Positions 5,362 through 55,659 of a stretch of DNA of 64,000 nucleotides are shown here, piece after piece. Numbering within the stretch: the first letter of the stretch is position 1; every line of letters starts with the position of its first letter. This DNA is from Proteobacteria bacterium UBA5680. GTDB taxonomy: Bacteria; Pseudomonadota; Gammaproteobacteria; Arenicellales; UBA5680. Position numbers and translations under genes: made by a program. The notes under the pieces were generated by a model. The model was not told the origin of the DNA, made no database searches, and worked only from the letters and a program-made list of their open reading frames with translations. The DNA is taken from NCBI GenBank assembly GCA_002420425.1, contig DIIC01000017.1, positions 76,052 through 140,051 on the forward strand, given 5' to 3'.

Positions 5362-5438
<77 letters not shown>

Positions 5439-17792: not shown

Positions 17793-17798
17793 ACATTA

Positions 17799-19159: not shown

Positions 19160-19229
19160 GCATTCATCCGCTTTTACTCCCTTCAAACAGCAAACATCAA
19201 AGAAATAGTAACCAAGTGCAGGAGATCTG

Positions 19230-21631: not shown

Positions 21632-24600
21632 ATGAGCACACCAAGAACAACCATTATCGATGGGAATGAAGCAGCTGTCTGGGTGGCATACCTGACTAAT
21701 GAGGTGATTGCGATCTACCCCATCACACCCTCTTCGACAATGGGAGAGCTTGCCGATCAGTGGTCATCCGAAGGTCGTACCAACCACTGGGGGAGTGTTC
21801 CCAATATTACTGAAATGCAGAGCGAGGGGGGTGCATCTGGAGTCATTCATGGCGCGCTCCAGGCCGGTTCTCTGGCCACCACATTCACGTCCTCCCAGGG
21901 TCTGCTGCTGATGATCCCCAATATGTACAAAATTGCGGGTGAATTAACCCCAACGGTTTTTCATGTTGCTGCGCGGACGGTTGCTACTCACGCACTCTCC
22001 ATATTCTGTGATCACAGTGATGTCATGGCTGCGCGGACAACGGGTTTTGGGATTCTGGCTTCTGGATCCGTTCAGGAGGTGATGGATATGGCCCTGATCT
22101 CACAGGCTGCCACACTGGAGGGACGGATTCCACTTATTCATATGTTTGATGGCTTTCGAACATCCCATGAACTCAATCGGATCGTTATGCTAGAGAGTGA
22201 AACGGTAGAAGCGATGATTCCGAGGTCGTTGGTCCAGGCACATCGTGATCGCAGCCTGTCACCTGAGCATCCGGTCATCAGAGGAACGTCCCAGAACCCC
22301 GATGTTTTTTTTCAGGCTCGTGAGCAGGTCAATAGCTATTACCAGAGAATGCCTGAAGTGGTTCAAAAGGCAATGAACCATTTTGCCCAGTTGACAGGGC
22401 GTAAATACCGGTTATTTGATTATATTGGGAATAGTGATGCAAATCGGATTGTTATTCTGATGGGATCTGGGGCTGAGACGGTAGATGTGACGATTGACCA
22501 GATGAATGCAGCAGGGGAGAAGGTCGGCGCAGTCAAGGTCAGGCTCTTCCGTCCATTTGATTCAAAAGCATTGTTTGATGTGCTACCCAGATCAGTTAAG
22601 CAGATTGCAGTTCTTGACAGGACAAAGGAGCCGGGCGCTGAAGGTGAGCCATTATATAAGGATATTGTAACCGCGCTTGCTCAAAACCAGTCTAATCATG
22701 AGTTCGATCAGCAAATTAATGTCGTAGGTGGGCGTTATGGTCTCTCTTCAAAAGAGTTTACTCCAGGAATGGTGAAATCGATTTTTGATGAGCTTGCAAA
22801 ACCCGAACCAAAAAATGATTTCACAGTCGGAATCTATGATGACGTAAGCCATAAGAGCCTTGATTACGACCGCAATTATCGAGTCTCTGTTGTCAAAGGG
22901 AGTATGTCAGCCGTTTTCTATGGTTTGGGCAGCGATGGGACGGTCAGTGCCAATAAAAATACGATCAAGATAATCGGTGAAGAGACCGATAATTACGTTC
23001 AGGGTTATTTTGAGTATGACTCAAAGAAAGCGGGAGCAGTAACGATCTCTCACCTTCGTTTTGGGCCAGACCCTATTCGATCAGCCCATCTTGTTGAAAC
23101 CGGTGAGGCCGCTCTCGTTGCCTGTCACCAACCCCAGTTCCTGTTGCGCTACGATATGTTGGCACAGGCAGCAGAGGGGGCAATATTCCTTCTTAATTCC
23201 CCTGCTCCAGCTGAAGAGGTATGGGAAAGCTTGCCCAGACTCTATCAACAGGCGATCCTCGATAAACAGATTGAGCTTTATTTGATAGATGCCTATGCGG
23301 TTGCTCGCAAGACAGGGATGGGGGCAAGGATCAACACCATCATGCAAGCCTGTTTTTTTGCGGTTACCGGTATTCTTGAGACCAATAAAGCGATAGAAGT
23401 GATAAAGGTTGCTGTTGAAAAGAGTTATGGCCGCAAGGGCCGTAAACTCGTCAAGCGAAACCATAAGGCAATTGATGAGTCACTTCATCAACTTCATAAA
23501 ATTGATATACCGGAGTCTGTCACCTCGACACAAGAGCAACCACCAGCCGTATCAAAAAATGCACCCCCTTTTGTACAAGAGGTCACTGGTGAGATCATTG
23601 CGGGCCGGGGGAATGAGATACCTGTGAGCCTGTTTCCTGCTGACGGCACTTTCCCGCTTGGGACGGCGGCTTATGAAAAGCGTAATCTGGCATTGGCAAT
23701 TCCGGTTTGGGATACCGACCTATGTACTCACTGTGGAAAGTGCCCACTCGTCTGCCCTCATACGGCAATTCGAAGCAAAATATTTAACCAAAGCCTCCTG
23801 GTTGATGCCCCACGCTCATTTAAGTCAGTAGCAGTCAAAGGCAAGGATTTCCCCCAGGGCACCATGATCAGTTATCAAGTCGCGCCGGAGGATTGCACTG
23901 GCTGTGGGTTATGCGTTGAGGTTTGCCCAATAAGAAGCAAAGAGGAGCCTGACAAAAAAGCACTGAATATGTTGACCCAGGCTCCCCTTCTTGAAGATGA
24001 AAAAGAGAGCTGGTCTTTTTTTACCACAATTCCAGAGTCTGATCGTAGCCTAATCAAGACCTCGACCATAAAAGGGGCAATGTTGTTAGAGCCTTTGTTC
24101 GAATTTTCCGGGGCCTGTGTGGGTTGTGGTGAAACACCCTATATTAAGCTGGCTACTCAACTCTTTGGTGATCGAATGATTATTGCCAATGCTACGGGGT
24201 GTTCCTCGATCTATGGCGGCAATCTGCCCACTACGCCGTGGACGACTAATGATCAGGGAAGGGGGCCGGCCTGGAGTAACTCTCTGTTTGAAGACAATGC
24301 AGAATTCGGCCTTGGTTTCAGGCTCTCAATTGACCACCATGCCCTTGTAGCCCGACAGAAGTTAAGCAGTTTTAAAGAGCCTTTGGGAGAGGAGTTCTGT
24401 GATGCCTTGATCAATGCAGACCAGGCCGATGAGTCAGGTATATGGGAGCAGCGACAGCGAGTTGATCTTCTCAAGCAAACACTGAAAAAAATAGGGACCC
24501 CGGAGTCTGGTGAACTGGCTGATCTTGCAGATTATCTGGTTCACCGTAGTGTCTGGATTATAGGTGGAGACGGTTGGGCCTATGATATTGGATTTGGTGG

Positions 24601-25201
24601 ATTGGACCATGTCATGGCATCAGGAAAGAATGTCAATATTCTGGTTCTTGATACTGAGGTCTACTCAAATACGGGAGGCCAGACTTCCAAAGCCACTCCC
24701 CGTGGAGCAGTGGCTAAATTTTCAGCCGGAGGAAAACCATCAGGGAAAAAAGATCTGGCGATGATGGCCATGAGTTATGAGAATGTCTATGTCGCACAAA
24801 TAGCCTCAGGCGCCAAGGATGTCCAGACAGTTCGTGCCTTTCTTGAGGCAGAATCTTATGCGGGGGTCTCACTGATTATCGCTTATTCACCTTGTATTGC
24901 TCACGGTGTTGATCTAAAAAATGCCTTGCGACAACAAGAGCTGGCGGTAAAAAGTGGTCATTGGCCTCTGTTCCGATTTGATCCAAGGCGCAGTGAGCGG
25001 GGTGAAAACCCGCTGACTCTTGATTCAAAGGAGCCCTCTATCGCTTATCGTGATTTTATAGATACTGAGGCCCGATTTAGTTTTCTCGGGCGGACACGCC
25101 CAGAAATTGCAGAAGAGCATCTAAATAAGAGTCAGTCACAGGTTATTGCACGTTACCGCCACTACCAACAACTCTCTGAACTACAAGTTGAGGAAGATTG
25201 A
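21632..25201 (+). CDS. nifJ: pyruvate:ferredoxin (flavodoxin) oxidoreductase, single-polypeptide type
   Basis: 1189 aa. N-terminal YPITPSS. Two ferredoxin motifs, CTHCGKCPLVCP and CTGCGLCVEVCP. CVGCGETPY. TPP motif GGDGWAYDIG...LDTEVYSNTGGQ. Confidence 0.93.
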   Translation: MSTPRTTIIDGNEAAVWVAYLTNEVIAIYPITPSSTMGELADQWSSEGRTNHWGSVPNITEMQSEGGASGVIHGALQAGSLATTFTSSQGLLLMIPNMYKIAGELTPTVFHVAARTVATHALSIFCDHSDVMAARTTGFGILASGSVQEVMDMALISQAATLEGRIPLIHMFDGFRTSHELNRIVMLESETVEAMIPRSLVQAHRDRSLSPEHPVIRGTSQNPDVFFQAREQVNSYYQRMPEVVQKAMNHFAQLTGRKYRLFDYIGNSDANRIVILMGSGAETVDVTIDQMNAAGEKVGAVKVRLFRPFDSKALFDVLPRSVKQIAVLDRTKEPGAEGEPLYKDIVTALAQNQSNHEFDQQINVVGGRYGLSSKEFTPGMVKSIFDELAKPEPKNDFTVGIYDDVSHKSLDYDRNYRVSVVKGSMSAVFYGLGSDGTVSANKNTIKIIGEETDNYVQGYFEYDSKKAGAVTISHLRFGPDPIRSAHLVETGEAALVACHQPQFLLRYDMLAQAAEGAIFLLNSPAPAEEVWESLPRLYQQAILDKQIELYLIDAYAVARKTGMGARINTIMQACFFAVTGILETNKAIEVIKVAVEKSYGRKGRKLVKRNHKAIDESLHQLHKIDIPESVTSTQEQPPAVSKNAPPFVQEVTGEIIAGRGNEIPVSLFPADGTFPLGTAAYEKRNLALAIPVWDTDLCTHCGKCPLVCPHTAIRSKIFNQSLLVDAPRSFKSVAVKGKDFPQGTMISYQVAPEDCTGCGLCVEVCPIRSKEEPDKKALNMLTQAPLLEDEKESWSFFTTIPESDRSLIKTSTIKGAMLLEPLFEFSGACVGCGETPYIKLATQLFGDRMIIANATGCSSIYGGNLPTTPWTTNDQGRGPAWSNSLFEDNAEFGLGFRLSIDHHALVARQKLSSFKEPLGEEFCDALINADQADESGIWEQRQRVDLLKQTLKKIGTPESGELADLADYLVHRSVWIIGGDGWAYDIGFGGLDHVMASGKNVNILVLDTEVYSNTGGQTSKATPRGAVAKFSAGGKPSGKKDLAMMAMSYENVYVAQIASGAKDVQTVRAFLEAESYAGVSLIIAYSPCIAHGVDLKNALRQQELAVKSGHWPLFRFDPRRSERGENPLTLDSKEPSIAYRDFIDTEARFSFLGRTRPEIAEEHLNKSQSQVIARYRHYQQLSELQVEED

Positions 25202-25203
25202 TT

Positions 25204-26196
25204 ATGGATATTTCAACTCAATATCTCGGTCTTGATCTCAAGAACCCACTGGTGCCCTCTGCCTCACCGATGATGAAGAGTCTTGATAGTGTCAGAAAGC
25301 TCGAAGATGCGGGGGCAGCTGCGATTATCATGCACTCTCTTTTTGAAGAGGAGATCAGCCATGAGCATGAAGAGGTGATGCTGCTTATGGAGCAACAGGA
25401 GTTGAGTCATGGTGAGGGTTCCCATTTTATTCCGACATATGAAGATTACGCCAATGGTCTGGATGCCTATCTTGAACAGATTCAGCGGTTAAAAAGCACA
25501 CTCGAGATACCGGTCATCGCCAGTTTGAATGGAATCAGTCTTGATGGCTGGATTGATAATGGCAGAAAGCTTGAAGAGGCGGGTGCTGATGCGCTTGAAC
25601 TCAATGTCTTCTTTATTGCGACGGATAGTAACCAAAGTGGTGCCGAAGTCGAAGATCGATATACCTCACTGCTGCGTGAACTGCGAGAGAACGTTTCGAT
25701 CCCTATCTGTATGAAGCTCTCCTCTCATTTCAGTTCTATCCCCCATCTGGTAAAACAACTGGAGATAAACGGAGCTGCCGGAGTCTCTCTCTTTAATTGT
25801 TTTTACCAGCCTGATATCAGTACCGATACTCTTCAGGTGATTCCTACGCCACCCTCATCTTCTGAGACTAATATGCTTCTCAGGATGCGCTGGATAGCCA
25901 TCCTCTACTCCCAGGTCGGGCTATCACTTGGCGTGACGGGGGGGGTTAAAAATGGCAATGACGCCCTTAAGTTTCTCCTCGCCGGTGCAGATGTTGTTCA
26001 GCTCTGCACCATTCTGTTTGAAAAAGGCCCGGAATATCTCGCCCAGATTCTTACAGAGCTGAAGGTCAAAATGGAACAACTCGGCTTTGATTCCATCAGT
26101 GAGTTAAAGGGCTCGATCAGCCATAATGCAGTAAAAGATCGTCAAGCATTTGAAAGGGCTCAGTATTTTCGCCATCTGACTGTTCGAGGCAGATAA
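25204..26196 (+). CDS. dihydroorotate dehydrogenase-like (class 1 DHOD / DHPD-like TIM barrel) protein
   Basis: MDISTQYLGLDLKNPLVPSASP..., later GADALELNV and GVSLFN. ATG at 25204 (the ORF is open from TTG 25198), 3 nt after the nifJ stop. Confidence 0.7.
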   Translation: MDISTQYLGLDLKNPLVPSASPMMKSLDSVRKLEDAGAAAIIMHSLFEEEISHEHEEVMLLMEQQELSHGEGSHFIPTYEDYANGLDAYLEQIQRLKSTLEIPVIASLNGISLDGWIDNGRKLEEAGADALELNVFFIATDSNQSGAEVEDRYTSLLRELRENVSIPICMKLSSHFSSIPHLVKQLEINGAAGVSLFNCFYQPDISTDTLQVIPTPPSSSETNMLLRMRWIAILYSQVGLSLGVTGGVKNGNDALKFLLAGADVVQLCTILFEKGPEYLAQILTELKVKMEQLGFDSISELKGSISHNAVKDRQAFERAQYFRHLTVRGR

Positions 26197-26325: not shown

Positions 26326-27393
26326 ATGACGCGTGTAATTGATTTTAAATCAGTGGGTAAGAGTGATATCCCGGAAGTGGGCGGAAAGTGTGCAAGTCTG
26401 GGTGAGCTACTGGATGCAGGGATACGGGTGCCGCATGGTTTTGCTGTAACCACCAGATGCTACAAAGAGTTTATCTCTGAGACAGGGATAGAAGAGGATA
26501 TCTTTCTCACTCTAAATGAGATCAACCCCGATGATATCGCCGAGTTGGATCGCCGGAGTGAAACAATCCGCGGGTTGATTAAAAAGAACCCAATGCCCAT
26601 CAAGATTCAAAAAGAGGTTGAAGAGGCATACGAAGGATTGGGCAAGGCGTACCACGACCTCAAACTCCCGGTCGCAGTTCGGTCAAGTGCAACCGCAGAA
26701 GATCTGCCCACCGCAAGCTTTGCAGGACAACAGGATACCTATCTTTGGACGATTGGGGTTGCCCAGGTCATTGCAAACATCAGGCGTTGCTGGGCAAGTC
26801 TTTATACTTCGCGGGCGATCAGTTACAGAATTAAAAATAACTTCAAACATCAGGATGTTTTTATCAGTGTCGGCATTCAGAAGATGGTGAGTTCAAAGAC
26901 CTCAGGTGTGATGTTTACGATTGATCCTACAAATGGTGATCCCTCAAAGGTGGTTATTGAAGGCAGTTGGGGGTTTGGTGAAACCGTTGTTGGAGGTTAT
27001 GTTAATCCGGATAAATTTGTAGTGGATAAAATAACCAAAGAGATTAACCAACGAAAGATCTCTCAAAAGCATATTGAGTGTGTCTATGATCAGGATAAGG
27101 GTTGCATCGTTCATAAAGATGTTGATGAGGATATGCAGGAAGAGCGCTGTCTGAATGATGACGAAATAAAGGAACTGGTCTCGATAGCAAGAACGATCGA
27201 ACGCCACTATGGCTGCCCTCAGGATATTGAGTGGACTATAGATAAGGAGGACTCATTCCCAGACAACATTTTTATCGTTCAGAGTCGGCCGGAAACTGTT
27301 TGGAGTCAGAAGCAGGGTAAGCCACTTCTTGGAGGAAAAAGCGGCTATGACATTATGATGGAAAGGGGGCTGAAGACGATAAAGATGACTTGA
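26326..27393 (+). CDS. PEP/pyruvate-binding (PPDK_N, ATP-grasp) domain protein, phenylphosphate synthase beta (PpsB)-like
   Basis: 355 aa (about 40 kDa). Reads VGGKCASLGELLDAGIRVPHGFAVT...VAVRSSATAEDLPTASFAGQQDTYL...QDIEWTI. It has only the nucleotide-binding part of a PEP synthase, with no mobile His domain. Confidence 0.75.
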   Translation: MTRVIDFKSVGKSDIPEVGGKCASLGELLDAGIRVPHGFAVTTRCYKEFISETGIEEDIFLTLNEINPDDIAELDRRSETIRGLIKKNPMPIKIQKEVEEAYEGLGKAYHDLKLPVAVRSSATAEDLPTASFAGQQDTYLWTIGVAQVIANIRRCWASLYTSRAISYRIKNNFKHQDVFISVGIQKMVSSKTSGVMFTIDPTNGDPSKVVIEGSWGFGETVVGGYVNPDKFVVDKITKEINQRKISQKHIECVYDQDKGCIVHKDVDEDMQEERCLNDDEIKELVSIARTIERHYGCPQDIEWTIDKEDSFPDNIFIVQSRPETVWSQKQGKPLLGGKSGYDIMMERGLKTIKMT

Positions 27394-27451
27394 ATTTCTG
27401 TTGTTTCAAAAATTGTAGTTTTTCTATTTTATTCTATGAGGAAATTGTTCG

Positions 27452-28852
27452 ATGAAAGATATGAGAGATTTTATTTCGCAAGGTGAGGAAGCTGGCCTGG
27501 TAAAACGGATTACAGCTGAAGTGGACCCCTATCTGGAACTATCTCACATTGCAAAACTGAATGAAGAAGAGCGTGGTCCTGCCCTGCTTTTTGAAAATAT
27601 CAAAGGTTATAGCTCACCGGTCATCACCAGTGTTTGTACAACTGAAGAACGTCTGGCTTTTATTATGGGTCAGCCACGGGAGTCATCGCTGTTTGATCTG
27701 TATGAGGAATGGGCAAAGCGCGGGGATGATTTGACTCCACCGAAATGGGTTGACTCTGCTCCCTGTAAGGAAAATATTCTGTTGGGAGATGATATCGATC
27801 TGTATAAATTCCCGATCCCTCACTACTACCCACTTGATGGAGGGCCGTATTATGGAACAGCTCACTTCATCATAACTAAAGACCCTGATTCTGGATGGGT
27901 CAATTTGGGAACCTATCGTAGTCAACTGCTTGAAAAAGATAAGATCGGGACTCAGTTCATTAAAGGCAAACATGCCGACATCATGCTGAAGAAATACCAG
28001 GCCCGTGGGGAAAAAATGCCAGTTGCCTCTATTTCAGGCTGTGATCCACTCCTCTTTATCCTCGGGGCATCGAGAGTCTCCGCATTTGTTTCAGAATATG
28101 ATGTTGCCGGGGCACTCCGAGGCCAACCTGTAGAGGTCATCAGAGGAGAAACTGTCGATCTGCCCATTCCGGCCACTGCTGAAATGGTTGTGGAGGGTTT
28201 TGTTGATCCTGAAGCCTTCTATGAAGAAGGGCCCTTCGGTGAATATACGGGATACTATTCAGGTGTTGGTACAGACCCAAGAAACTTTATTGAAGTTTCC
28301 TGCATGACCCACCGTGATAACCCTATACACCATGGCACAACAGTAGGTCGTGCTGTGACCGATACCCATATGACCATGGCGCTCTCTTATGGGGCCACTC
28401 TATGGCAACAGCTTAATACGATGAAAATCCCTGGCCTGAAATCATGCTACTGTCCTCCTGAAGGGTCGGGGCGTTTTTTGGCCATCATTTCAATAACACA
28501 GATGTATCCGGGCCATGTAGACCAGGTTTTAACCGCCGCAATTTCAACAGAGATGGGCGCATACGGATTAAAAACGGTCATTGTTGTGGACGAGGATATT
28601 GATCCCTGGGATATTCCTCGGGTGATGTATGCCCTTAGTTTCCGCTTCCAGCCGAACCGTTCTCAAGTCATTAAAAGAGGGCGTTCAACCCCACTCGATC
28701 CTTCCCTGCCCATTAGTGCACGGGAGATCACCGGGAGACTGTTGATGGATGCCACCATTCCATATGAATGGGAAAAGAAGCCTATACCGATTGAACTCGA
28801 TCCTGAGATCGTTGATCGGGTTAAATCACGCTGGTCAGAACTTGGCCTTTGA
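27452..28852 (+). CDS. UbiD-family prFMN-dependent (de)carboxylase
   Basis: 466 aa. UbiD-like start MKDMRDFISQGEEAGLVKRITAEVDPYLELSHIAKL...GPALLFENIKGY, with the later stretch GPFGEYTGYY. Confidence 0.85.
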   Translation: MKDMRDFISQGEEAGLVKRITAEVDPYLELSHIAKLNEEERGPALLFENIKGYSSPVITSVCTTEERLAFIMGQPRESSLFDLYEEWAKRGDDLTPPKWVDSAPCKENILLGDDIDLYKFPIPHYYPLDGGPYYGTAHFIITKDPDSGWVNLGTYRSQLLEKDKIGTQFIKGKHADIMLKKYQARGEKMPVASISGCDPLLFILGASRVSAFVSEYDVAGALRGQPVEVIRGETVDLPIPATAEMVVEGFVDPEAFYEEGPFGEYTGYYSGVGTDPRNFIEVSCMTHRDNPIHHGTTVGRAVTDTHMTMALSYGATLWQQLNTMKIPGLKSCYCPPEGSGRFLAIISITQMYPGHVDQVLTAAISTEMGAYGLKTVIVVDEDIDPWDIPRVMYALSFRFQPNRSQVIKRGRSTPLDPSLPISAREITGRLLMDATIPYEWEKKPIPIELDPEIVDRVKSRWSELGL

Positions 28853-28869
28853 CAAGTCGGGGTGCGTCA

Positions 28870-29667
28870 ATGGTGGATCGTGAGATAAAAGGGATTGTCT
28901 TCGATATAGACGGTTGTGTTGTTCGAGGGAAGAAAGTAATTCCAGGTGTGCCGGATACACTGACTGAATTACGAAGACGAAAGATCCGTTTTGCATTTCT
29001 CACTAATGACAACCAGAACACGCGTCACTTTCTCGCTGAGAAATTGTCGGCCATGGGAATCCCTGCCAACGAAGATGAGGTGTTGACCTCAGCGATTATT
29101 GCTGCTCGTGCAGCCCGGGAACTCCATCCAAACAGCAAGATACTTGCTTTTGGTGGAGCCGGTTTGATTGAGGCCTTGAATGATCAGAAGTTGGATCTGG
29201 TGGACCATGATCATGCGGAGGAAGCGGAAGTTGTTATAATGGGCAAAGATCCCAATTTTAGCCAACAACGCCTTGCTCTGGCTTGTCAGGCCATCTGGCG
29301 TGGCGCCGATTTTATCGCCACAAATTATGACCCAAAAATACCGGTAGAGAGTGGTTTCATTCCTGCATCAGGTCCCTTCATCAAGGCAGTAGCCTACGCT
29401 ACCGGCAAAGAACCTCTCGTTACTGGAAAACCCTCCGAGTGGTCTGGCGAGATGGCAATGAAGGTGCTTGATGTCTCTCCAGATCAGGGAATGGTTGTTG
29501 GTGATAGCTTGCAGCAGGATATTGCAATGGGAAAAGTGGCCGGTCTTTATACTGTCCTGGTGCTCACCGGAGGCAGTACACTCGAAGAGGCGCAGGATGC
29601 GCCTGATGAAATCAAGCCTGATCTCATACTTCCAGATGTAAATCATCTGCTTGAACATCTTGGCTGA
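28870..29667 (+). CDS. HAD-superfamily (subfamily IIA, NagD-like) phosphatase-like protein
   Basis: DxD motif VFDIDGCVV, then LTNDN, then a late GDSLQQDI. ATG at 28870. The ORF is open from TTG 28849, which overlaps the UbiD stop. Confidence 0.75.
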   Translation: MVDREIKGIVFDIDGCVVRGKKVIPGVPDTLTELRRRKIRFAFLTNDNQNTRHFLAEKLSAMGIPANEDEVLTSAIIAARAARELHPNSKILAFGGAGLIEALNDQKLDLVDHDHAEEAEVVIMGKDPNFSQQRLALACQAIWRGADFIATNYDPKIPVESGFIPASGPFIKAVAYATGKEPLVTGKPSEWSGEMAMKVLDVSPDQGMVVGDSLQQDIAMGKVAGLYTVLVLTGGSTLEEAQDAPDEIKPDLILPDVNHLLEHLG

Positions 29668-30112
29668 TTTTCCTGAAAAGCTCTACAACTATCTGGGGTC
29701 GGGAACTCCAGGGCTGGTCATTACAATTGGAGAAGATGAGTTACCCAATACGGCTTATACCTGGGTAGTGGCCAGCGATCGAAAAACTGCTCGTTTTGCT
29801 GTCGATCAACAGAGTAATACCCAGATCAATTTGGAGGGAAACGGCAGATGTGCAATCCAGATAATAGGCCCGGAGAATTTGCTTTACCTGTTAAAAGGAC
29901 AAGCCCATTTTATCTCTGATCCAATAGAGATGGCGTCCCTGAGCTTATTGATCGCTGAAATGAGTGAAATGCAAATAAAAGATCAATCCTGGAAGGGGGT
30001 CAGCGTGACACCATTGGCCTATCAATGGCCGGCAGGGCAGAGTAAGAGAATGGAAAAGATGGAAGATGCACTCTTTGATCAGATGAGAATTGAGTTGCAA
30101 CCGCATCAGTAG
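29651..30112 (+). CDS. small protein, probably a PNPOx-like FMN-binding split-barrel fold
   Basis: 153 aa. TTG start overlapping the HAD gene by 17 nt. The pattern LVITIGEDELPNTAYTWVVASDRKTARFAV...TQINLEGNGRCAIQII...YLLKGQAHF resembles the pyridoxamine 5'-phosphate oxidase family. Confidence 0.45.
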   Translation: MNILADFPEKLYNYLGSGTPGLVITIGEDELPNTAYTWVVASDRKTARFAVDQQSNTQINLEGNGRCAIQIIGPENLLYLLKGQAHFISDPIEMASLSLLIAEMSEMQIKDQSWKGVSVTPLAYQWPAGQSKRMEKMEDALFDQMRIELQPHQ

Positions 30113-30155
30113 ACAAAACTGAATCTAATTTACATATGAGATAGATGAGGTAGGA

Positions 30156-30740
30156 ATGAGAAAATTAGTTATCGGTGTTGCAGGGGCAAGTGGGGTGATT
30201 TATGCGATTCGTCTTCTTGAAGTATTGCGTGATGTTTCAGATATTGAAACACATCTGGTGCTCAGTAAGGCGGCACACAAGACAATTGCCTATGAAACGG
30301 ATTCAACTGCCAAGCAAATTATAGCTTTGGCAGATGTACATCACTCTATTGACAATATTGCTGCATCTATTTCATCTGGTTCCTTCAAGACAATGGGGAT
30401 GATCGTTGTGCCGTGTTCGATGAAGACTCTTTCCGGCATCGCATCGTCATTCAGTGAAAATCTGCTGTTACGAGCTGCAGATGTCACTCTCAAAGACAGA
30501 CGGCCTCTTGTTTTGCTTCCTCGCGAGACCCCGCTCCACCTTGGCCATCTTCGGCTGATGGTACAAGTCACAGAGATGGGAGCAATTGTACTGCCGCCGA
30601 TGCCTGCTTTTTATCATAAGCCAAAAACAGTTGATGATATTGTAAATCAGACCGTCAATAGAACACTTGATATCTTTGGCATTGAGCTTGAGCACGATCT
30701 CTTTGACCGTTGGTCAGGCCCCGCTAATCAACAGAGCTGA
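30156..30740 (+). CDS. ubiX: flavin prenyltransferase UbiX
   Basis: 194 aa. Reads MRKLVIGVAGASGVIYAIRLLEVL...VVPCSMKTLSGIA...RRPLVLLPRETPL. Confidence 0.9.
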   Translation: MRKLVIGVAGASGVIYAIRLLEVLRDVSDIETHLVLSKAAHKTIAYETDSTAKQIIALADVHHSIDNIAASISSGSFKTMGMIVVPCSMKTLSGIASSFSENLLLRAADVTLKDRRPLVLLPRETPLHLGHLRLMVQVTEMGAIVLPPMPAFYHKPKTVDDIVNQTVNRTLDIFGIELEHDLFDRWSGPANQQS

Positions 30741-30747
30741 TTAAATA

Positions 30748-31206
30748 ATGAGCCTCCGTGAGAGAGCATTGGATTACTTGCAAGCGCACAAGGTGCTTTC
30801 ACTGGCGACATTTGGAGATCAAGGGGTTTGGGCCTCACCCCTCTATTATGCCAGTGATGATTTCAGTTTGTATTTTCTCTCTTCGCCCACCACTCGTCAC
30901 TGCCAGAATATCGAATCTGATCCAAGAGTAGCGGCAACGATCTATGAGGATTATGATGACTGGAAAGAGATCAAAGGGATTCAAATAGAAGGAGAGGTCA
31001 AGACTATCACAGGCTCAAAACAATTAAGTGTAATCGCTCGCTATACCGCCAAATTCCCTTTTATTGCAATGCAAAAGCCAACACAGATCAAACAGGCAAT
31101 GGAAAATATCTGCTGGTACTCACTCACCCCGACTCGTCTTTTTTTTATTGATAATTCAATTCGATTGGGCCATCGAACAGAAGTTCATCTGGATAGCCAG
31201 GGGTAG
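30748..31206 (+). CDS. pyridoxamine 5'-phosphate oxidase family (FMN-binding split barrel) protein
   Basis: 152 aa. Reads ALDYLQAHKVLSLATFGDQGVWASPLYYASDDFSLYFLSSPTTRHCQNIESDPRVAATI...IKGIQIEGEV. Confidence 0.75.
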   Translation: MSLRERALDYLQAHKVLSLATFGDQGVWASPLYYASDDFSLYFLSSPTTRHCQNIESDPRVAATIYEDYDDWKEIKGIQIEGEVKTITGSKQLSVIARYTAKFPFIAMQKPTQIKQAMENICWYSLTPTRLFFIDNSIRLGHRTEVHLDSQG

Positions 31207-31207
31207 T

Positions 31208-32503
31208 ATGAATTTCTTTGATCCGCAAATAGAGAAACTGACGCGTACTCAGTTACAGGCTCTTCAAATGGAGAAATTGAGTTCCTTGCTTGAATCAATA
31301 TACGGCAAGAACCAATTCTATACTGCCAAATATGATGATGCGGGAGTACACCCCGGATCCATCAAAGCACTTGATGATCTATCCCGATTGCCGCTTACTA
31401 CCAAGGCTGAATTAGTAGAGGCCCAACAACAGGATCACCCCTTCGGATTGAACGCAACATTCAATCAGGCCGCCTACACACGTTTTCACCAAACATCCGG
31501 GACTACCGGAGAACCATTAAGAGTCGTTGATACCCCGGAATCCTGGGAGTGGTGGGGGCGATGTTGGGGATATGTTTTAAGCGGTGCAGGATTGAGTGAC
31601 CAAGACCGGATCTTTGTCCCATTTTCATTTGGGCCATTTATCGGTTTTTGGGCAGCCGTAGAGGGCGCAAAACAAATAAAGGCAATGATGATACCCGGAG
31701 GAGGAAGAAATTCACTGCAGCGATTGCAGTTATTGAAAGAGCTCGATGTGACGGCCATGTGCTGCACACCTACTTATGCATTGCGGTTGGCAGAAGTGGC
31801 GGATGAGGCAGGAATAGATTTAAGCAAAATGCCACTCAAAGCGCTCATCAATGCCGGTGAGCCCGGCGCCAATGTTCCCGCAACCAAAGCCAGGATTCAA
31901 ACCTTATGGGATGTGAAGTGTTATGACCATGCCGGTGCCTCTGAAATTGGGGCCCATAGTTTTGAGTGTGAGATGCAGCCAAACGGGATACATCTCATTG
32001 AGAGCGAGTTTATTGTTGAAGTGCTTGATCCCATTGATTTAAAGCCAGTTCCTTCAGGAGAACAAGGCGAGCTGATAATCACCAACTTGGGTCGCACTGG
32101 TTTTCCAGCGATTCGTTACCGCTCAGGTGATTTGGTTCGATTGAATCAGGAGCAATGCAGTTGTGGGAGAACGTTTGCAAGATTTGAGGGTGGGGTCCTG
32201 GGCAGGGCTGATGACATGGTGGTAGTGCGAGGTGTGAACATCTATCCAAGTGCTGTAGAGAATCTAATACGGCAATGTCACACAGTCGGGGAGTTTCGGA
32301 TCACTGTCTCGACTCAATGTGAGATGAAAAGCCTCCAAGTTGAGATCGAACTCAATAAAGAGGCGGAGGATGAAGCTGCTCAAGCGTACGTTACTCAGAC
32401 AATGCAGAATGAGCTTGGTTTAAGGCCGGAAGTCTTGGTTGTTCCCTTTGGATCACTCCCACGCTTTGAGATGAAGGCAAAACGATTTCATATAAAGGAA
32501 TAG
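31208..32503 (+). CDS. PaaK-type (phenylacetate-CoA ligase family) adenylate-forming acyl/aryl-CoA ligase
   Basis: 431 aa from the ATG at 31208, 1 nt after the upstream stop. AMP motif FHQTSGTTGEP. Later YRSGD and GRADDMVVVRGVNIYP. The 31064 start in the track is an in-frame extension overlapping the upstream gene. Confidence 0.85.
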   Translation: MNFFDPQIEKLTRTQLQALQMEKLSSLLESIYGKNQFYTAKYDDAGVHPGSIKALDDLSRLPLTTKAELVEAQQQDHPFGLNATFNQAAYTRFHQTSGTTGEPLRVVDTPESWEWWGRCWGYVLSGAGLSDQDRIFVPFSFGPFIGFWAAVEGAKQIKAMMIPGGGRNSLQRLQLLKELDVTAMCCTPTYALRLAEVADEAGIDLSKMPLKALINAGEPGANVPATKARIQTLWDVKCYDHAGASEIGAHSFECEMQPNGIHLIESEFIVEVLDPIDLKPVPSGEQGELIITNLGRTGFPAIRYRSGDLVRLNQEQCSCGRTFARFEGGVLGRADDMVVVRGVNIYPSAVENLIRQCHTVGEFRITVSTQCEMKSLQVEIELNKEAEDEAAQAYVTQTMQNELGLRPEVLVVPFGSLPRFEMKAKRFHIKE

Positions 32504-32665
32504 ATTATTGATGTTAATGGCTCAAAAAAAATCGGAAGACCAATGTTTAAGGGTAACCCCGATCAATATGTTAAGGTCTAAGAAGGTTCTTCAACCCTTT
32601 GCAGGCCAGATAAAGAGGATGGATGGATTTACTCATTTATCCATAAAAACCTAAAGGAGGTAGTT

Positions 32666-34513
32666 ATGTCTAGCGATACAGTAGGACGTTTTCCAGATCC
32701 ACATGAATTCCAGGTCCCGAGCGAACTTGCAGGATGGGAAGAGATGTACCCCTCTCATCAGCTTTTTTCAGCTGATCGGGAGGAGTGGGAAAAAAACCAG
32801 TTTTGGTTTCAAGACAAGATTCATGCCCCTGAAGCAATTCCACCGCTTGACCATATTTTCCAGGAAGCATGGCAGATCTCACTATCTCAATATACAACAC
32901 GAGTCTTTTGTATCCCGCCCGCCCAAGGCATTGCGCAGCGAATGGTTGGTTGTTACCTCTACATCTGTGCTATTGCCCCACCCCCAGACGAAGTTCAGGG
33001 AGCAAAAGCGGAACGTTTCGGGGCGCGGGTATTTCCAGTATTTCAGAATTATGATGCCCTCTGGGAGAAGTGGTTAGTCAAATTTAAGGCCCTTGGCGAA
33101 GAGATGGATAATCTGAAAATACCTAATGAACTGCCAGAGTTCATTCCTGAGGAAGAGGTGTTGCCCGTACCCAAAGGGTGTTATGTCTCATACGACCTGA
33201 TGGAGGGCTTCGATAAACTCGTCAATATGATGTTTAAGGGTTGGCAGTATCATTTCGAGATGCTGAATCTCTCCTATCTTGCCTATCTGATGTTTACCGA
33301 TGTTGCCAGGAATCTATTCCCTGGAATAAGCGAAAGTTCGATCGGGAAAATGGTGGCGGGTGCCAATGTGGCCATGTTCCGACCAGAGGAGGAACTCTGC
33401 CAACTGGCAAGGCTGGCGCATTCCCAGAATGGCGTGGCCGATATCCTCAAAGGAGAGGGCTCTGCCAATGAGAAAATAGACCAGCTAGGAGAGCTGGCTG
33501 AAGGTAAAAGCTGGCTGGAACAGTTTCATAATGCCAAGGAGCCGTGGTTTTATGTCTCCTGCGGCAGTGGCTGGTATCACCATGAAGGAAGTTGGGTCAC
33601 AAACCTGGAAATTCCCCTTGGTTATATCAAGGGTTACCTGGAACAGCTTGACAATGGTGAAACCATTGAGCGTTCCCTTGAGAAAATCGAAAAGGATCGC
33701 GATGAGATCATAGCCGAATATCGCGGCCTGATAAAAACGGATGAAGATAAGAAAACCTTTGATGACACCTACAACAATATCCGCTCTATTTACCGCTACG
33801 CAGAAGACCATCTGTTCTGGGTTGAACATTGGTTCCATACAATCTGGTATGCCAAGATTCGAGAAATCGGAGCAGTGCTGGTTAAGATGAACATGCTGGA
33901 TAATATTGATGATATCTTCATGTTCAATCGCTATGAGATACCAGAGTTATTGACCGAGACGTCAACAGGGTGGGCATTAGGTGTCGATATTCCCATGCGG
34001 AGTGCTCACTATAAGGCTACGGTTGATAAGCGTCGTAAAATCCTTGACGCCGCAACGGAGTGGAATGCACAACCCGCCCTGGGAATACCCCCTGAGGAAG
34101 TTGCCGAACCATTCACTGTGATGCTCTGGGGCATTACCACTGATCGAGTTCAAGGGTGGTTAAAAGGGGTGGATGCTGCTTCGGGTGATGAAATCTCGGA
34201 GATTAGTGGTTTTGCCTCCTCTGCCGGGGTTGTAGAAGGACCCGCAAGAGTGTTGAAACGTCTTAAAGAAATTGTTGATATCCAACCCGGTGAAATTCTT
34301 GTCTGTGCCTCAACAAACCCCTCCTGGGCGCCAATTTTTACCAAAATCAAAGGGGCGGTTACTGATATAGGGGGTTTAACAAGCCATGCAGCGATAGTCT
34401 GCCGTGAGTATGGTATTCCCTCTGTAACAGGTACCGGGATTGCAACAACAACCATCAAGACAGGTGATAGGGTAAGAGTTGATGGTGATACGGGTGAGGT
34501 AACTCTACTCTAA
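32666..34513 (+). CDS. PEP-utilising-enzyme mobile-domain protein, phenylphosphate synthase alpha (PpsA)-like
   Basis: 615 aa (about 70 kDa). The C-terminal swivel domain has the phospho-His motif GGLTSHAAIVCREYGIP. I could not place the N-terminal region of about 500 aa in a family. No ATP-grasp part is present. Confidence 0.7.
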   Translation: MSSDTVGRFPDPHEFQVPSELAGWEEMYPSHQLFSADREEWEKNQFWFQDKIHAPEAIPPLDHIFQEAWQISLSQYTTRVFCIPPAQGIAQRMVGCYLYICAIAPPPDEVQGAKAERFGARVFPVFQNYDALWEKWLVKFKALGEEMDNLKIPNELPEFIPEEEVLPVPKGCYVSYDLMEGFDKLVNMMFKGWQYHFEMLNLSYLAYLMFTDVARNLFPGISESSIGKMVAGANVAMFRPEEELCQLARLAHSQNGVADILKGEGSANEKIDQLGELAEGKSWLEQFHNAKEPWFYVSCGSGWYHHEGSWVTNLEIPLGYIKGYLEQLDNGETIERSLEKIEKDRDEIIAEYRGLIKTDEDKKTFDDTYNNIRSIYRYAEDHLFWVEHWFHTIWYAKIREIGAVLVKMNMLDNIDDIFMFNRYEIPELLTETSTGWALGVDIPMRSAHYKATVDKRRKILDAATEWNAQPALGIPPEEVAEPFTVMLWGITTDRVQGWLKGVDAASGDEISEISGFASSAGVVEGPARVLKRLKEIVDIQPGEILVCASTNPSWAPIFTKIKGAVTDIGGLTSHAAIVCREYGIPSVTGTGIATTTIKTGDRVRVDGDTGEVTLL

Positions 34514-34543: not shown

Positions 34544-34580
34544 ATGAGGCTGGTGTAATCACCAGCCTCATTGTTGTTGT
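34544..34580 (+). terminator. rho-independent-type terminator
   Basis: Perfect 12-bp stem ATGAGGCTGGTG (34544-34555) / CACCAGCCTCAT (34560-34571) with loop TAAT, followed by TGTTGTTGT. Confidence 0.65.
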
Positions 34581-34749: not shown

Positions 34750-36960
34750 GTGATGAATATACAAAACCGAATCGATCGGCTCTGCTCCCGGATGCACCAA
34801 GCTCCGCAGTACCCCAACCAGGGTGCTGTCCAGTTTGTTGATCTGACAAACAGGGAATCACACTCTGCCTACTTTTCATCTGACGTTGCGAGCGCATTTC
34901 TTGGTGGACGTGGGGCAAATATGTATCTGCTCTATAACCTCCTCGATGAGGGTTGTCACCCACTAGACCCGCAGGTTCCGCTTATATTTGGGGCGGGCAT
35001 TCTCACGGGATTTGTGCCGGGGGCCCCAAGAGGGAATGTCTCCAGCCTCTCGCCCGATAGTCGAGCTATCCTTGATGCCAATGCGGGTGATTTTTTCCCC
35101 TCCTTCATGCGCCGTCACGGGATTGATCATCTGGTCTTGTATGGCAAGGCGCCCTCACTGACACTCCTTCATTACAAAGAGGGCTCTTTCTTTTTTGATG
35201 ATGCCACCCCCTACAGCGGGCTCAACAACCAATCTCTAACCGAACAGATAGAGTCTCACTACCACTGCAAAGAGGGCAAAGACATGGCCCTTGCGCGGAT
35301 TACTCAAGCGGGTGAAAACCAGGTCCTAACCAGTGGGATCATGGGGGGAGAGAAGTCAATTTGGGCGCGAGGGGGAGGCGGTGCAAAAATGGGGTCAATG
35401 CAGTTAAAAGCTCTCCTGATAGAGGGCGATGTTCCCAAACACACGCCGACCGCTCTGTTTCGAAGTAACAACAAGGCAATTGGAAAGAAGATCCTGAGCA
35501 CCAGTGTAGTGAAGAACGTACTTAAAAAAGTGGGCACTCCCTTTCTCTATAAAGCAAGCCGAACGCTCCATGCCCTCGGTGCTTTGAATAATCAGAAGAC
35601 CCAGTGGAGCAAAAGCCTGGATGCAGAGAACTTGACTCCCTATAAGAGGGGGATGACAGGATGTTACAAGTGCCCCGTACACTGTCGTATGCTCAATCAG
35701 CTTGATGAGGAGGGGGCCGCTCCCGGCACCCTGCTAAAGGGTGATGGTCCTGAATATGTCACTGTCGGCAAGTTTGGGCCCAATCTTGGGATTTCTGATC
35801 CTCAAGTGGTGGTCAGACTGAACAACAGGCTGAATGATCTTGGTCTTGATTCAGCCAGTACCGGGGGCGCGCTGGCTTGGGCTTTTGAACTCTATCAGCG
35901 AGGCATTATTACTACCCAGGAGACCGGGGGTTTGGTACTTGAGTGGGGTGATGGGGCGTTGGTAGAACAACTCCTGGAGATGACGGCTGCACGCAAGGGC
36001 TTCGGTTCGACTATTGCTGAGTCAGGGCGTGCAGTGGAGAAGGGGTGTTATCCTGATGAGGCGCTCGATTACCGGATGGCTGTCAAGGGTCTGTTTCAGT
36101 CAGACCCCCACGATTCACGCATCATCAAGGCATTTGCCCTGGGTCTTGCGGTGGCAACACGGGGAATGGATCATCTCAGAAACAGGGTTACACTCGAGAT
36201 CAATCCGAGAATCAATGATGACCCCGACTATAAAAAGAGTCTCTATGGGGGGATGGTCGACGCCAATCCGGCAAGTTATAACGGCAAGGAATATGCTGTT
36301 TCAAAATGTGAACAGGTTTTTGCAGCAGGAGATGCGGCCGGGATGTGTCGGTTTAATACCAAGCTGTTCAACTCTCCGTCGCTGCCCCATTGTGGTGATT
36401 TTGCGGTTCAGCTCAAAGAGTTGACCGGACTGCCTTTTACTGAAGAGAGTGTTGAGAGTGCCGGACAGAACATTAATCTCCTTGAGAGGCTGATTAATTT
36501 CAGGATAGGGTTGAGAGCCTCTGACGATACTCTTCCTGATCGCTGGTTTAATGAGTCTATCAAGAGTGGTCCCTATGAAGGTGAAAAGATAGAACGTTCT
36601 CATTTTGATGATTTAATACAGCGATACTACTCTCTGATTGGGGTTGGCCCGAATGGTATGGTGCTGGCAGACAAACACAGGGAGCTTGCCGAAAAAGTCA
36701 CAGGCTTCTGGGTTAATGTCCAGTTTCCGGACTCTCTTTTGGGTGGTACCGAGATCCCTTCAGTGTTTGATGAGCCGGTGGAAAACATCGTTGAGCTGAG
36801 AGAGAGATTGATTGGCCGTTATCCCATACTCAGAGAGCCGCTTGATGATGAACTGGCACTGGTAGTGGTTAATGGGGAGACTATCTTCTCAGGTGAGAGT
36901 GAGCACGCGGTAAAGAGTGGAGACTCAATTGAGTTTGTCCATGCCATTTCAGGCGGTTAA
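34750..36960 (+). CDS. tungsten-type aldehyde:ferredoxin oxidoreductase (AOR family) fused to a C-terminal MoaD/ThiS-like domain ending in Gly-Gly
   Basis: 736 aa. AOR N-domain (FLGGRGANMYLL). 4Fe-4S motif CYKCPVHC. The last 85 aa or so (from about 36697) read ...ELRERLIGRYPILREPLDDELALVVVNGETIFSGESEHAVKSGDSIEFVHAISGG-stop. Confidence 0.85.
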   Translation: MMNIQNRIDRLCSRMHQAPQYPNQGAVQFVDLTNRESHSAYFSSDVASAFLGGRGANMYLLYNLLDEGCHPLDPQVPLIFGAGILTGFVPGAPRGNVSSLSPDSRAILDANAGDFFPSFMRRHGIDHLVLYGKAPSLTLLHYKEGSFFFDDATPYSGLNNQSLTEQIESHYHCKEGKDMALARITQAGENQVLTSGIMGGEKSIWARGGGGAKMGSMQLKALLIEGDVPKHTPTALFRSNNKAIGKKILSTSVVKNVLKKVGTPFLYKASRTLHALGALNNQKTQWSKSLDAENLTPYKRGMTGCYKCPVHCRMLNQLDEEGAAPGTLLKGDGPEYVTVGKFGPNLGISDPQVVVRLNNRLNDLGLDSASTGGALAWAFELYQRGIITTQETGGLVLEWGDGALVEQLLEMTAARKGFGSTIAESGRAVEKGCYPDEALDYRMAVKGLFQSDPHDSRIIKAFALGLAVATRGMDHLRNRVTLEINPRINDDPDYKKSLYGGMVDANPASYNGKEYAVSKCEQVFAAGDAAGMCRFNTKLFNSPSLPHCGDFAVQLKELTGLPFTEESVESAGQNINLLERLINFRIGLRASDDTLPDRWFNESIKSGPYEGEKIERSHFDDLIQRYYSLIGVGPNGMVLADKHRELAEKVTGFWVNVQFPDSLLGGTEIPSVFDEPVENIVELRERLIGRYPILREPLDDELALVVVNGETIFSGESEHAVKSGDSIEFVHAISGG

Positions 36961-55560: not shown

Positions 55561-55610
55561 AATTTTCTGCGTTAGGGCTTCTACTTGGCTAATTTTTTGG
55601 GCTACACTAG

Positions 55611-55650
55611 TATTTATCAATGTAATTATTTCAATGAAAATGATTAAAAA
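55611..55650. promoter_or_regulatory. conserved AT-rich element in the rnfB/apbE divergent intergenic region (copy A)
   Basis: TATTTATCAATGTAATTATTTCAATGAAAATGATTAAAAA. Matches copy B as described. Lies 51-90 nt upstream of rnfB ATG 55560 and 10-49 nt upstream of apbE ATG 55660. Confidence 0.45.
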
Positions 55651-55659
55651 GGACAATAC

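Follow-up and report, generated by a model that had tools for sequence, protein, structure and literature searches.

The stretch analysed here, called the window below, comprises 64,000 nucleotides of contig DIIC01000017.1 (positions 76,052 to 140,051, forward strand) from Proteobacteria bacterium UBA5680. It contains eight tightly packed genes of the same strand (Table 1), which encode the two halves of a phenylphosphate-synthase-like kinase (PpsB and PpsA), a UbiD-family (de)carboxylase, a HAD-IIA phosphatase, the flavin prenyltransferase UbiX, two split-barrel flavoproteins, named here PNPOx1 and PNPOx2, and a PaaK-type CoA ligase. A first-pass annotation had proposed these genes and products from the sequence alone, and all eight were recovered in place in the list of open reading frames (ORFs), with a domain content that Pfam confirms.

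Table 1. Features of the gene cluster and its downstream neighbour, in window coordinates
Feature	Position	Strand	Remarks
PpsB-like subunit, free-standing ATP-grasp (PPDK_N) half	26326..27393	+	355 aa; PF01326 E 3e-120
PpcB-type UbiD (de)carboxylase	27452..28852	+	466 aa; UbiD_N/UbiD/UbiD_C, all three domains
HAD-IIA phosphatase	28870..29667	+	265 aa (272 aa from TTG 28849); Hydrolase_6 + Hydrolase_like
PNPOx1, split-barrel flavoprotein	29651..30112	+	153 aa; weak PF01243 (PNPOx_N) match
UbiX flavin prenyltransferase	30156..30740	+	194 aa; Flavoprotein domain
PNPOx2, split-barrel flavoprotein (YhbP/UPF0306-like)	30748..31206	+	152 aa; PF01243 E 5e-12
PaaK-type acyl-CoA ligase	31208..32503	+	431 aa; PF00501 (AMP-binding) + PF14535 (AMP-binding_C_2)
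PpsA-like subunit	32666..34513	+	615 aa; substrate-binding N-terminal region + C-terminal phospho-histidine swivel, PF00391 residues 539-610
Terminator-like hairpin	34544..34571	+	GC-rich 12-bp stem, 7 GC pairs, 31 nt past PpsA stop; weak T-run
Tungsten-type aldehyde:ferredoxin oxidoreductase (AOR)	34750..36960	+	AFOR_N, AFOR_C, C-terminal ThiS/MoaD-like domain (residues 677-736)

Given starts at TTG 28849 for the HAD gene and ATG 31208 for the ligase gene, successive junctions measure 58, -4, -17, 43, 7, 1 and 162 nt, negative values being overlaps. These lengths reproduce those of the first-pass annotation, except that the HAD start is called at ATG 28870 in three public copies of the contig, where a 17-nt gap replaces the 4-nt overlap. 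The longest ORF of the ligase begins at TTG 31064, and gene callers choose 31208 or 31268. Because the 12-bp hairpin follows the last gene, the eight genes look like a single unit ending there, which suggests that the downstream AOR gene is separate. A promoter scan of the cluster returned fewer sites than shuffled sequence and was uninformative, and an Rfam scan of the whole window detected no regulatory RNA in the cluster, the sole match being a tRNA at 5362-5435 (+). The eight gene families co-occur, in other gene orders, on independent marine metagenome contigs, and because they recur together in this way the arrangement is beyond chance. A check of gene neighbourhoods, which the first-pass annotation had recommended, thus found the full set of eight, reordered as UbiD-HAD-PNPOx1-PpsB-PpsA-(HD)-UbiX-PNPOx2-PaaK, at three loci (L094, L096 and L098).

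The system against which these genes are best read is the phe cluster of Desulfatiglans anilini. This cluster is induced by phenol, contains one ppc-beta gene, ppsA/B, ubiX and a gene of the phenylacetate-CoA-ligase type, and belongs to a genome without ppc-gamma; extracts of phenol-grown cells turn phenol and ATP into phenylphosphate (PMC6114531). Geobacter metallireducens likewise has a ppc-beta homologue only (PMC6114531). In D. anilini (H567DRAFT_02049-02059) the genes are ordered ppc-beta, a 552-aa AMP ligase, UPF0261, ubiX, three genes of the 4-hydroxybenzoyl-CoA-reductase (Hcr) type, ppsA (615 aa) and ppsB, with a PaaK-type ligase gene lying beyond.

The first-pass annotation had recognised in the 355-aa and 615-aa products the split kinase of phenylphosphate synthase, and this holds. 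In PpsB, PPDK_N covers residues 16-332 with neither a swivel nor a TIM-barrel domain, and the protein aligns only to the first third of phosphoenolpyruvate (PEP) synthase models, under their cut-offs (415 bits against 598 for NF005057). PpsA scores 833 bits with NF006153 (PRK08296.1-5, the PpsA-like family), for which the cut-off is 578. The window thus encodes both an alpha subunit of ~70 kDa, with a swivel C-terminus and a PRK08296-type N-terminal region, and a separate PPDK_N beta subunit of ~40 kDa. An identity as PEP synthase or pyruvate phosphate dikinase was ruled out, the domains being divided over two genes and the TIM-barrel domain absent. Window PpsA is 59% identical to that of D. 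anilini over 608 aa, GGLTSHAAIV included. Between PasA, the kinase for aniline, and D. anilini PpsA, identity is only 26.7% (PMC7500099). Because the window protein combines its identity over the full length with the same size of 615 aa, whereas PasA and PpsA are so far apart, it belongs beside the kinase for phenol rather than that for aniline. PpsC, the stimulatory gamma subunit of ~24 kDa, was found neither among the eight products nor among their neighbours; the D. anilini cluster also lacks it.

In the window, ppsB and ppsA are kept apart by six genes. At L099 the order is UbiD-HAD-PNPOx1-PpsA-PpsB, the last two being 86% and 72% identical to their window counterparts, whereas at L094, L096 and L098 identity to the window stands at only 43-52% for the Pps pair and at 92% for UbiD. 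By identity to window PpsA, two clades can be told apart, at about 72-86% and about 41-47%, and both accompany near-identical UbiD-HAD-PNPOx1 triads. Likewise, L092-L098 on one side and L099 with the window on the other combine UbiDs that are 90-92% identical to the window's with two different PpsA/PpsB pairs, one with a PpsA that matches the window PpsA at 86% and the other with one that matches it at 43-47%. From these identities, the kinase genes appear to have been swapped as a module.

NCBIfam equivalog models were used to class the UbiD protein. It reaches the threshold of the phenylphosphate carboxylase beta model (TIGR02724 phenyl_P_beta, 477.1 bits against a cut-off of 468.95) and falls far below that of the PpcA-type alpha model (TIGR02723, 192 bits against 565). 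It is 79% identical to Ppc-beta2 of D. anilini (H567DRAFT_02059). More than 5000 homologues were found, the best 120 each having an identity of 75% or more and many of these being annotated as phenylphosphate carboxylase beta. The catalytic and metal-binding motifs N151-x-G-x-Y-R156, K-H174, E215 and E259-GPFG-E264 are invariant in the UbiD alignment. No second UbiD gene exists within the 64-kb window, and no gene for PpcC, the small gamma subunit of 10 kDa, was found in the cluster, where every ORF is assigned and intergenic gaps are at most 162 nt. UbiX is clear (NF004685, 276 bits against a cut-off of 188) and shares 54% identity with its counterpart in the phe cluster of D. anilini.

The sequence of reactions that the first-pass annotation had read from the gene content, namely phosphorylation, carboxylation via prenylated flavin mononucleotide (prFMN) and ligation to CoA, therefore matches a cluster that is induced by phenol. 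On the other hand, its view that the cluster is a hybrid whose substrate is unknown and whose route may be new has to be given up, the core being that of the published phe cluster. It had added that the claim would weaken if an identical cluster were already assigned to a characterised pathway; because the window proteins are close orthologues of those of D. anilini, this is the case for the core. The single UbiD, the lack of PpsC and of a gamma subunit, and the PaaK-type ligase, which it had counted as mismatches, deviate from Thauera aromatica only and are published for strict anaerobes. By contrast, the larger type of HAD and the distance of six genes between the kinase halves, which it had also listed, are unusual against D. 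anilini as well.

The HAD protein is a member of HAD-SF-IIA (TIGR01460, 142 bits against a cut-off of 100), with the motifs FDIDG, LTND, GKP and GDS..D all intact. Its nearest solved relatives are PH1952, the p-nitrophenylphosphatases 4o8c and 3qgm (from Geobacillus and Archaeoglobus) and pyridoxal phosphate (PLP) phosphatase. With HAD-IIA p-nitrophenylphosphatases and with PLP and phosphoglycolate phosphatases (NagD, Pho13, PDXP) it shares the four motifs and similarity over the full length (E 1e-40 to 1e-46). Enzymes of the NagD/Pho13/PDXP type are known for the hydrolysis of aryl phosphates, and we know of none with a link to a UbiD carboxylase. When metagenome contigs were scanned with the HAD protein, 13 loci were found (65-99% identity), and the HAD gene directly followed that of a PpcB-type UbiD in all 13, with PNPOx1 next in 12. 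Together with L007 and L071 this makes 15 of 15 independent loci with the HAD gene directly 3' of a PpcB-type UbiD gene, in two distant UbiD clades, and this HAD subgroup was found only in that position. The protein is not an 18-kDa KDO-8-P-phosphatase-like HAD of the PpcD type. However, because PpcD is what enables the Thauera carboxylase, and the window HAD lies in an aryl-phosphatase branch and beside UbiD, we propose, from adjacency and family, that it may be a functional analogue of PpcD, that is, the partner of UbiD that dephosphorylates phenylphosphate. The first-pass annotation had drawn the same parallel, and the HAD may indeed take the place of that phosphatase subunit.

The family of PNPOx1 is small, with 83 clusters among 1.84 billion representatives. 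NF005232/PRK06733 matches 48 of 49 family members, the window protein being a distant one (40 bits against a cut-off of 93). A single-sequence search of the PDB with PNPOx1 gave no match at E <= 1. A profile of the family, however, matched 2q9k at E 3e-22 and, marginally, PhdC (9srg, E 0.046, 16.6 bits over 53 positions). The AlphaFold2 model (predicted local distance difference test score, pLDDT, 93.6) was compared with the PDB by Foldseek: 2q9k (exig_1997) ranked 1, and PhdC structures took ranks 2, 4-8 and 10-12, with E 2e-6 to 4e-5 and a template modelling score of about 0.6. PhdC and the distant YclD oxidise the prFMN radical to the active iminium form and activate UbiD enzymes in vivo, and the oxidant for prFMN maturation in strict anaerobes "remains unclear" (PMC13040415). 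Like PhdC of Mycolicibacterium fortuitum and YclD of Priestia megaterium, PNPOx1 is of the flavin-binding split-barrel type of ~150 aa, and its gene lies beside UbiX/UbiD; unlike PhdC, its sequence similarity is marginal, and its nearest solved relative is the uncharacterised exig_1997. The ends of YclD given by published primers (first 9 and last 10 residues) matched no member of the family, and the equation of PRK06733 with YclD is tentative.

For PNPOx2, about 89 homologues were detectable. Its model (pLDDT 93.6) is a generic split barrel of the PNPOx/HugZ type, and a reading of PNPOx2 as a PhdC homologue is not supported, the 50 best Foldseek matches being of the HugZ, Rv2991 and PNPOx types, without PhdC. 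What ties it to UbiX is its position: homologues lie 18-39 nt after UbiX at nine other PpcB loci, and L089 and L090, from two unrelated genomes, also have them close to UbiX or to UbiX-UbiD. The best reading of both split-barrel proteins is a role in the handling of flavin or prFMN, PhdC family membership not being established.

Other small enzymes surround ubiX in related clusters. At L071 (7815-8975), PNPOx1 is fused to His_Phos_1 right after UbiX; at L103 (11957-13991), a NUDIX gene precedes UbiX and a His_Phos_1 gene follows it; at L096 (12437-13054), an HD-domain protein stands beside ubiX; and at L090 (7466-7990), a NUDIX gene stands beside the PNPOx2 homologue. The role of such phosphohydrolases next to ubiX may lie in providing dimethylallyl monophosphate or in trimming flavin nucleotides. 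The window differs from these clusters in having no NUDIX, His_Phos_1 or HD gene at ubiX. At L105 and L106 (6001-8825), a four-gene operon encodes a PNPOx1-like protein (39%), His_Phos_1, a fusion of CTP-dependent riboflavin kinase to a HAD domain, and a PNPOx2-like protein (52%), with no UbiX within 6 kb; the relatives of PNPOx1 and PNPOx2 are thus paired here, together with FMN-making enzymes, in a genome that is unrelated (10-Mb contig). For P0284, on a contig of 1.6 kb, the gene context was uninformative.

The ligase has the architecture of PaaK without being a PaaK equivalog (TIGR02155, 260 bits against a cut-off of 646). Orthologues that are 61-73% identical accompany the HAD-type clusters L071, L096 and L103. 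We propose that it is a candidate 4-hydroxybenzoate-CoA ligase. Because no gene for 4-hydroxybenzoyl-CoA reductase or for the benzoyl-CoA pathway was found in the 64-kb window, the fate of the product is not demonstrated.

The distribution of the core was followed by a scan with the UbiD alignment, one genome being taken per species, which gave 80 loci, mostly in metagenome-assembled genomes (MAGs) of Desulfobacterota and some in Chloroflexota. The window proteins and the additional D. anilini proteins were then searched by tblastn over 85 loci, the window's own copies included. Beside the PpcB-type UbiD, a PpsB homologue is present at 70 of the 85 loci, PpsA at 62, UPF0261 at 66, UbiX at 53 and the 552-aa AMP ligase at 51, while Hcr-type genes occur at 11 to 17. 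AOR-like genes (27-38% identity) were counted at 10 of the 85, seven of the PpcB loci besides the window's having one. The commonest order is PpsA-PpsB-UbiD-(552-aa ligase)-UPF0261-UbiX, whereas the window has HAD-IIA after UbiD instead. Most PpcB-type UbiD genes are followed by the 552-aa AMP ligase and UPF0261, or by UPF0261 alone (L023, 12145-15208; L006, 2666-3886).

Neither the 552-aa AMP ligase nor UPF0261 occurs in the window or at any HAD-type locus, and no locus among those examined has both HAD-IIA and UPF0261. Among the 80 species genomes, the HAD-after-UbiD arrangement is restricted to L007 and L071. The two accessories alternate beside UbiDs that are 92% identical (UPF0261 at L006, HAD-IIA at L092-L098). 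In the UbiD tree, which was built by neighbour-joining without resampling, HAD-type loci fall into two separate clades: a marine clade, which includes the UPF0261-type L006, and a Chloroflexota clade, in which L071 and L103 stand among UPF0261-type loci. Because HAD-type loci are thus split over two clades and mixed with UPF0261-type loci, the accessory was swapped on at least two occasions.

Taken together, we consider it probable that the eight genes form an operon of the strict-anaerobe type through which phenol, or a small phenolic much like it, is activated at the expense of ATP and carboxylated in the para position. The grounds for this are family membership, orthology to the phenol-induced proteins of D. 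anilini, conserved neighbourhoods and the fold similarity between PNPOx1 and PhdC; from them we infer what the substrates of the pathway and of the ligase are and which parts the HAD and the two split-barrel proteins play. PpsB would pyrophosphorylate the swivel histidine of PpsA, which would pass the phosphate on to phenol, yielding phenylphosphate, AMP and inorganic phosphate. The single PpcB-type UbiD, with prFMN, would then carboxylate the ring para to the oxygen as the phosphate leaves, giving 4-hydroxybenzoate; the removal of the phosphate would fall to the HAD-IIA protein, as it does to the unrelated small HAD subunit PpcD in Thauera. UbiX would make prFMNH2, and the flanking split-barrel flavoproteins would handle the flavin, PNPOx1 as a PhdC/YclD-like maturase or carrier that brings oxidised prFMN to UbiD, and PNPOx2 as a flavin partner associated with UbiX. 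Finally, the PaaK-type ligase would convert 4-hydroxybenzoate into 4-hydroxybenzoyl-CoA for a benzoyl-CoA pathway, necessarily encoded elsewhere.

Several points weigh against the phenol operon. To our knowledge, no single-PpcB system has ever been shown to have phenylphosphate carboxylase activity, nor do we know of a description of strictly anoxic phenol metabolism in the pelagic marine lineage of the host (Arenicellales/Acidiferrobacteraceae). The absence from the window of genes that would process 4-hydroxybenzoyl-CoA counts on the same side. The link between HAD and UbiD is drawn from gene adjacency only, and a cofactor-related role of the HAD is possible. The resemblance between PNPOx1 and PhdC is moderate (15-16% identity, besides the scores given above), and PNPOx2 has no particular resemblance to PhdC. 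In D. anilini itself, assays of phenylphosphate carboxylase failed in extracts, for which the authors suggest "a different catalytic mechanism" (PMC6114531), and Ppc-beta2 in vitro was active only with a second UbiD, on phenylphosphoamidate and not on phenylphosphate (PMC7500099).

Because D. anilini Ppc-beta2 worked on phenylphosphoamidate, the same chemistry may serve another substrate, such as aniline (via phenylphosphoamidate to 4-aminobenzoate), catechol, hydroquinone or cresol, the ligase activating the matching benzoate. That the nearest characterised UbiD helped to produce 4-aminobenzoate fits this view, as does the presence of two divergent PpsA clades beside near-identical UbiD-HAD-PNPOx1 triads, which suggests an exchangeable kinase that sets specificity; moreover, window PpsA shares merely 59% of its residues with the phenol enzyme. 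However, that figure applies over the full length and is far above the identity between PasA and D. anilini PpsA, and the aniline system required a second UbiD, from the ani cluster, which the window lacks; we therefore regard another substrate as decidedly unlikely. A different alternative leaves the pathway as proposed and moves the HAD to cofactor supply, either converting dimethylallyl pyrophosphate (DMAPP) into dimethylallyl monophosphate for UbiX or trimming flavin, with dephosphorylation left to UbiD itself or to a protein encoded elsewhere. Such a role comes into consideration because the HAD gene is tightly joined to PNPOx1, which it overlaps or abuts by 8-17 nt in marine loci, and other phosphohydrolases do occur at UbiX (NUDIX and His_Phos_1 at L103, the PNPOx1-His_Phos_1 fusion at L071, HD at L096), while the PNPOx1/PNPOx2 operon of L105 holds the riboflavin kinase fused to a HAD domain. 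Yet the constant neighbour of the HAD is UbiD, not UbiX: at L071 and L103 it follows UbiD, ppsA and ppsB separate it from ubiX, and His_Phos_1 or NUDIX stands beside ubiX in addition. The HAD domain of L105 has no BLAST similarity to the window HAD, which itself lies in the aryl-phosphate phosphatase branch. A cofactor role is thus, in our estimate, unlikely but worth keeping in mind.

The first-pass annotation had also been reminded, by the combination of a PaaK-type ligase with UbiD and UbiX, of the aryl-dicarboxyl-CoA decarboxylases for phthalate and isophthalate, in which the ligase makes the aryl-CoA and UbiD decarboxylates it. The resemblance is faint. The UbiD protein scores 55 bits against 8oz5 and 8pmk and 268 bits against the best UbiD structure, so that a place in the phthaloyl-CoA decarboxylase clade was rejected, and it reaches the PpcB cut-off; such a system would moreover give no role to the split kinase, which is nevertheless kept with UbiD at 62-70 of 85 loci. 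Of all explanations this is the one we find hardest to credit. Scarcely more credible is a decarboxylating or biosynthetic direction, with UbiD acting as a 4-hydroxybenzoate decarboxylase or in the pathway of a quinone or another cofactor, even though UbiD enzymes can work in both directions, this one is conserved to an extreme degree (75-92% identity across orders) that looks more housekeeping-like, and the window has no downstream catabolic genes. An ATP-consuming phenol kinase is sensible only for carboxylation, the cut-offs of the models for quinone-pathway UbiD proteins are missed by a wide margin (NF008175, 256 against 788 bits; TIGR03701, 270 against 496 bits), and 4-hydroxybenzoyl-CoA reductase genes lie beside the core at many related loci.

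The origin of the cluster was examined through composition and phylogeny. The first-pass annotation had found it richer in AT than the rnf region and had seen in this a hint of lateral acquisition. The direction is right: GC content is 0.466 in the cluster genes (0.453 at third codon positions, GC3) and 0.523 (GC3 0.566) in the right flank, with rnf and fdh. The left flank, however, which includes pheST, stands at 0.488 (GC3 0.474), and because the cluster is only about 2 points under this housekeeping flank, composition alone marks no island and is weak evidence for one. Tetranucleotide usage correlates better with the left flank (r 0.88-0.89) than with the right (0.69-0.79). The window as a whole has two compositional halves, with GC3 at 0.40-0.50 to the left of ~34.5 kb and 0.49-0.66 to the right, and the step coincides with the end of the cluster, not its start. 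No integrase or repeat boundary was seen at the cluster.

The UbiD tree and the taxon labels are better indications of lateral acquisition. Because the marine UbiD clade is nested among Desulfobacterota in the neighbour-joining tree, beside Desulfobacula MAGs, a lateral transfer from Desulfobacterota to a marine gammaproteobacterial lineage is suggested, provided that the gammaproteobacterial label is correct. Proteins identical to those of the window are found in 40 to >250 data blocks of marine assemblies, on contigs as long as 326 kb, and the MAGs concerned bear the label Arenicellales or Acidiferrobacteraceae. Some members of the same clusters at 90% identity are labelled Marinimicrobia, Desulfobacula or Bacteroidota; these mixed labels stem either from noise in the binning or from a recent transfer among lineages that occur together. 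This occurrence indicates that a capacity for phenol activation of the anaerobic type is present in abundant pelagic marine bacteria. We found nothing relevant in the literature on phenylphosphate carboxylase in marine pelagic genomes.

Around the cluster, the upstream flank holds a tungstate-type ATP-binding cassette transporter and moeA (tupABC and moeA at 16965-20456, +), 14 kb upstream of the AOR gene and on the same strand. It also holds, just upstream of the cluster (21632-26196, +), a tight pair formed by a 1189-aa pyruvate:ferredoxin oxidoreductase (PFOR) gene and a dihydroorotate-dehydrogenase-like gene (NF005741, 408 bits), which overlap by 4 nt. The downstream AOR gene is probably a separate transcription unit with a possible link to the cluster. 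We rejected it as a benzoyl-CoA reductase of the BamB type, given 211 bits against the AOR of Pyrococcus furiosus (1aor) and 90 bits against BamB. Farther out, the left side carries pheST, rplT, rpmI, infC and thrS, and the right side carries rnf, a PFOR-like gene, fdh and fhs. This PFOR-like ORF of 1647 aa (49545-54488, -; POR_N, PFOR_II, POR, ferredoxin and thiamine pyrophosphate domains) sits between rnfB and rnfCDGEA, the rnf genes occupying 45176-49511 and 54682-55656, and is unusually large for a placement in an rnf operon.

The composition of a single-PpcB phenylphosphate carboxylase is an open problem of the field, for which the cluster offers the HAD-IIA protein as a clonable candidate partner. 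Similarly, the two flavoproteins tied to UbiX are clonable candidates for helpers of prFMN maturation without oxygen. A bolder and quite tentative idea is that single-UbiD carboxylases may need an interchangeable partner, either HAD-IIA with a PaaK-type ligase or UPF0261 with the 552-aa AMP ligase, and that the PNPOx1/PNPOx2 pair, accompanied elsewhere by His_Phos_1, NUDIX or riboflavin kinase, may serve the oxygen-independent making, oxidation and delivery of prFMN. If this were true, the PNPOx1/PNPOx2 system would answer how strict anaerobes mature prFMN. The alternation of HAD and UPF0261 beside 92%-identical UbiDs provides a natural experiment on the idea of a partner, and the marine occurrence of the cluster is relevant to how phenolic compounds are turned over in low-oxygen water.

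The cluster can finally be set against the two known types of phenol activation. Like PpsABC/PpcABCD of Thauera aromatica, it follows the same reaction logic, with a kinase split into 70-kDa and 40-kDa proteins and a swivel histidine, a UbiD-family carboxylase working with a phosphatase of the HAD superfamily, and CoA ligation after carboxylation. Unlike the Thauera system, it has one UbiD paralogue, no gamma subunit and no PpsC. Thauera PpcD, which makes a phenylphosphate carboxylase of the CO2-exchanging alpha-beta-gamma core, is an 18-kDa KDO-8-P-phosphatase-like HAD, whereas the window HAD is a 265-aa protein of type IIA with a cap domain, hence at best an analogue and not an orthologue. 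The likeness is closer to the phe cluster of D. anilini and to the Gmet_2100-2102 operon: PpsA and PpsB are separate proteins, a single PpcB-type UbiD is accompanied by UbiX and a PaaK-type ligase, and PpcA, PpcC and PpsC are lacking. In contrast to the D. anilini cluster, the window has no 552-aa AMP ligase, UPF0261 or 4-hydroxybenzoyl-CoA reductase genes; it has instead a HAD-IIA protein and two split-barrel flavoproteins, ppsB and ppsA six genes apart, and a pelagic marine host. The core is thus the already known phenol activation of strict anaerobes, and the genuinely unusual features of the cluster are the HAD-IIA protein, the pair of split-barrel flavoproteins, kinase genes that lie apart from each other and a marine host.

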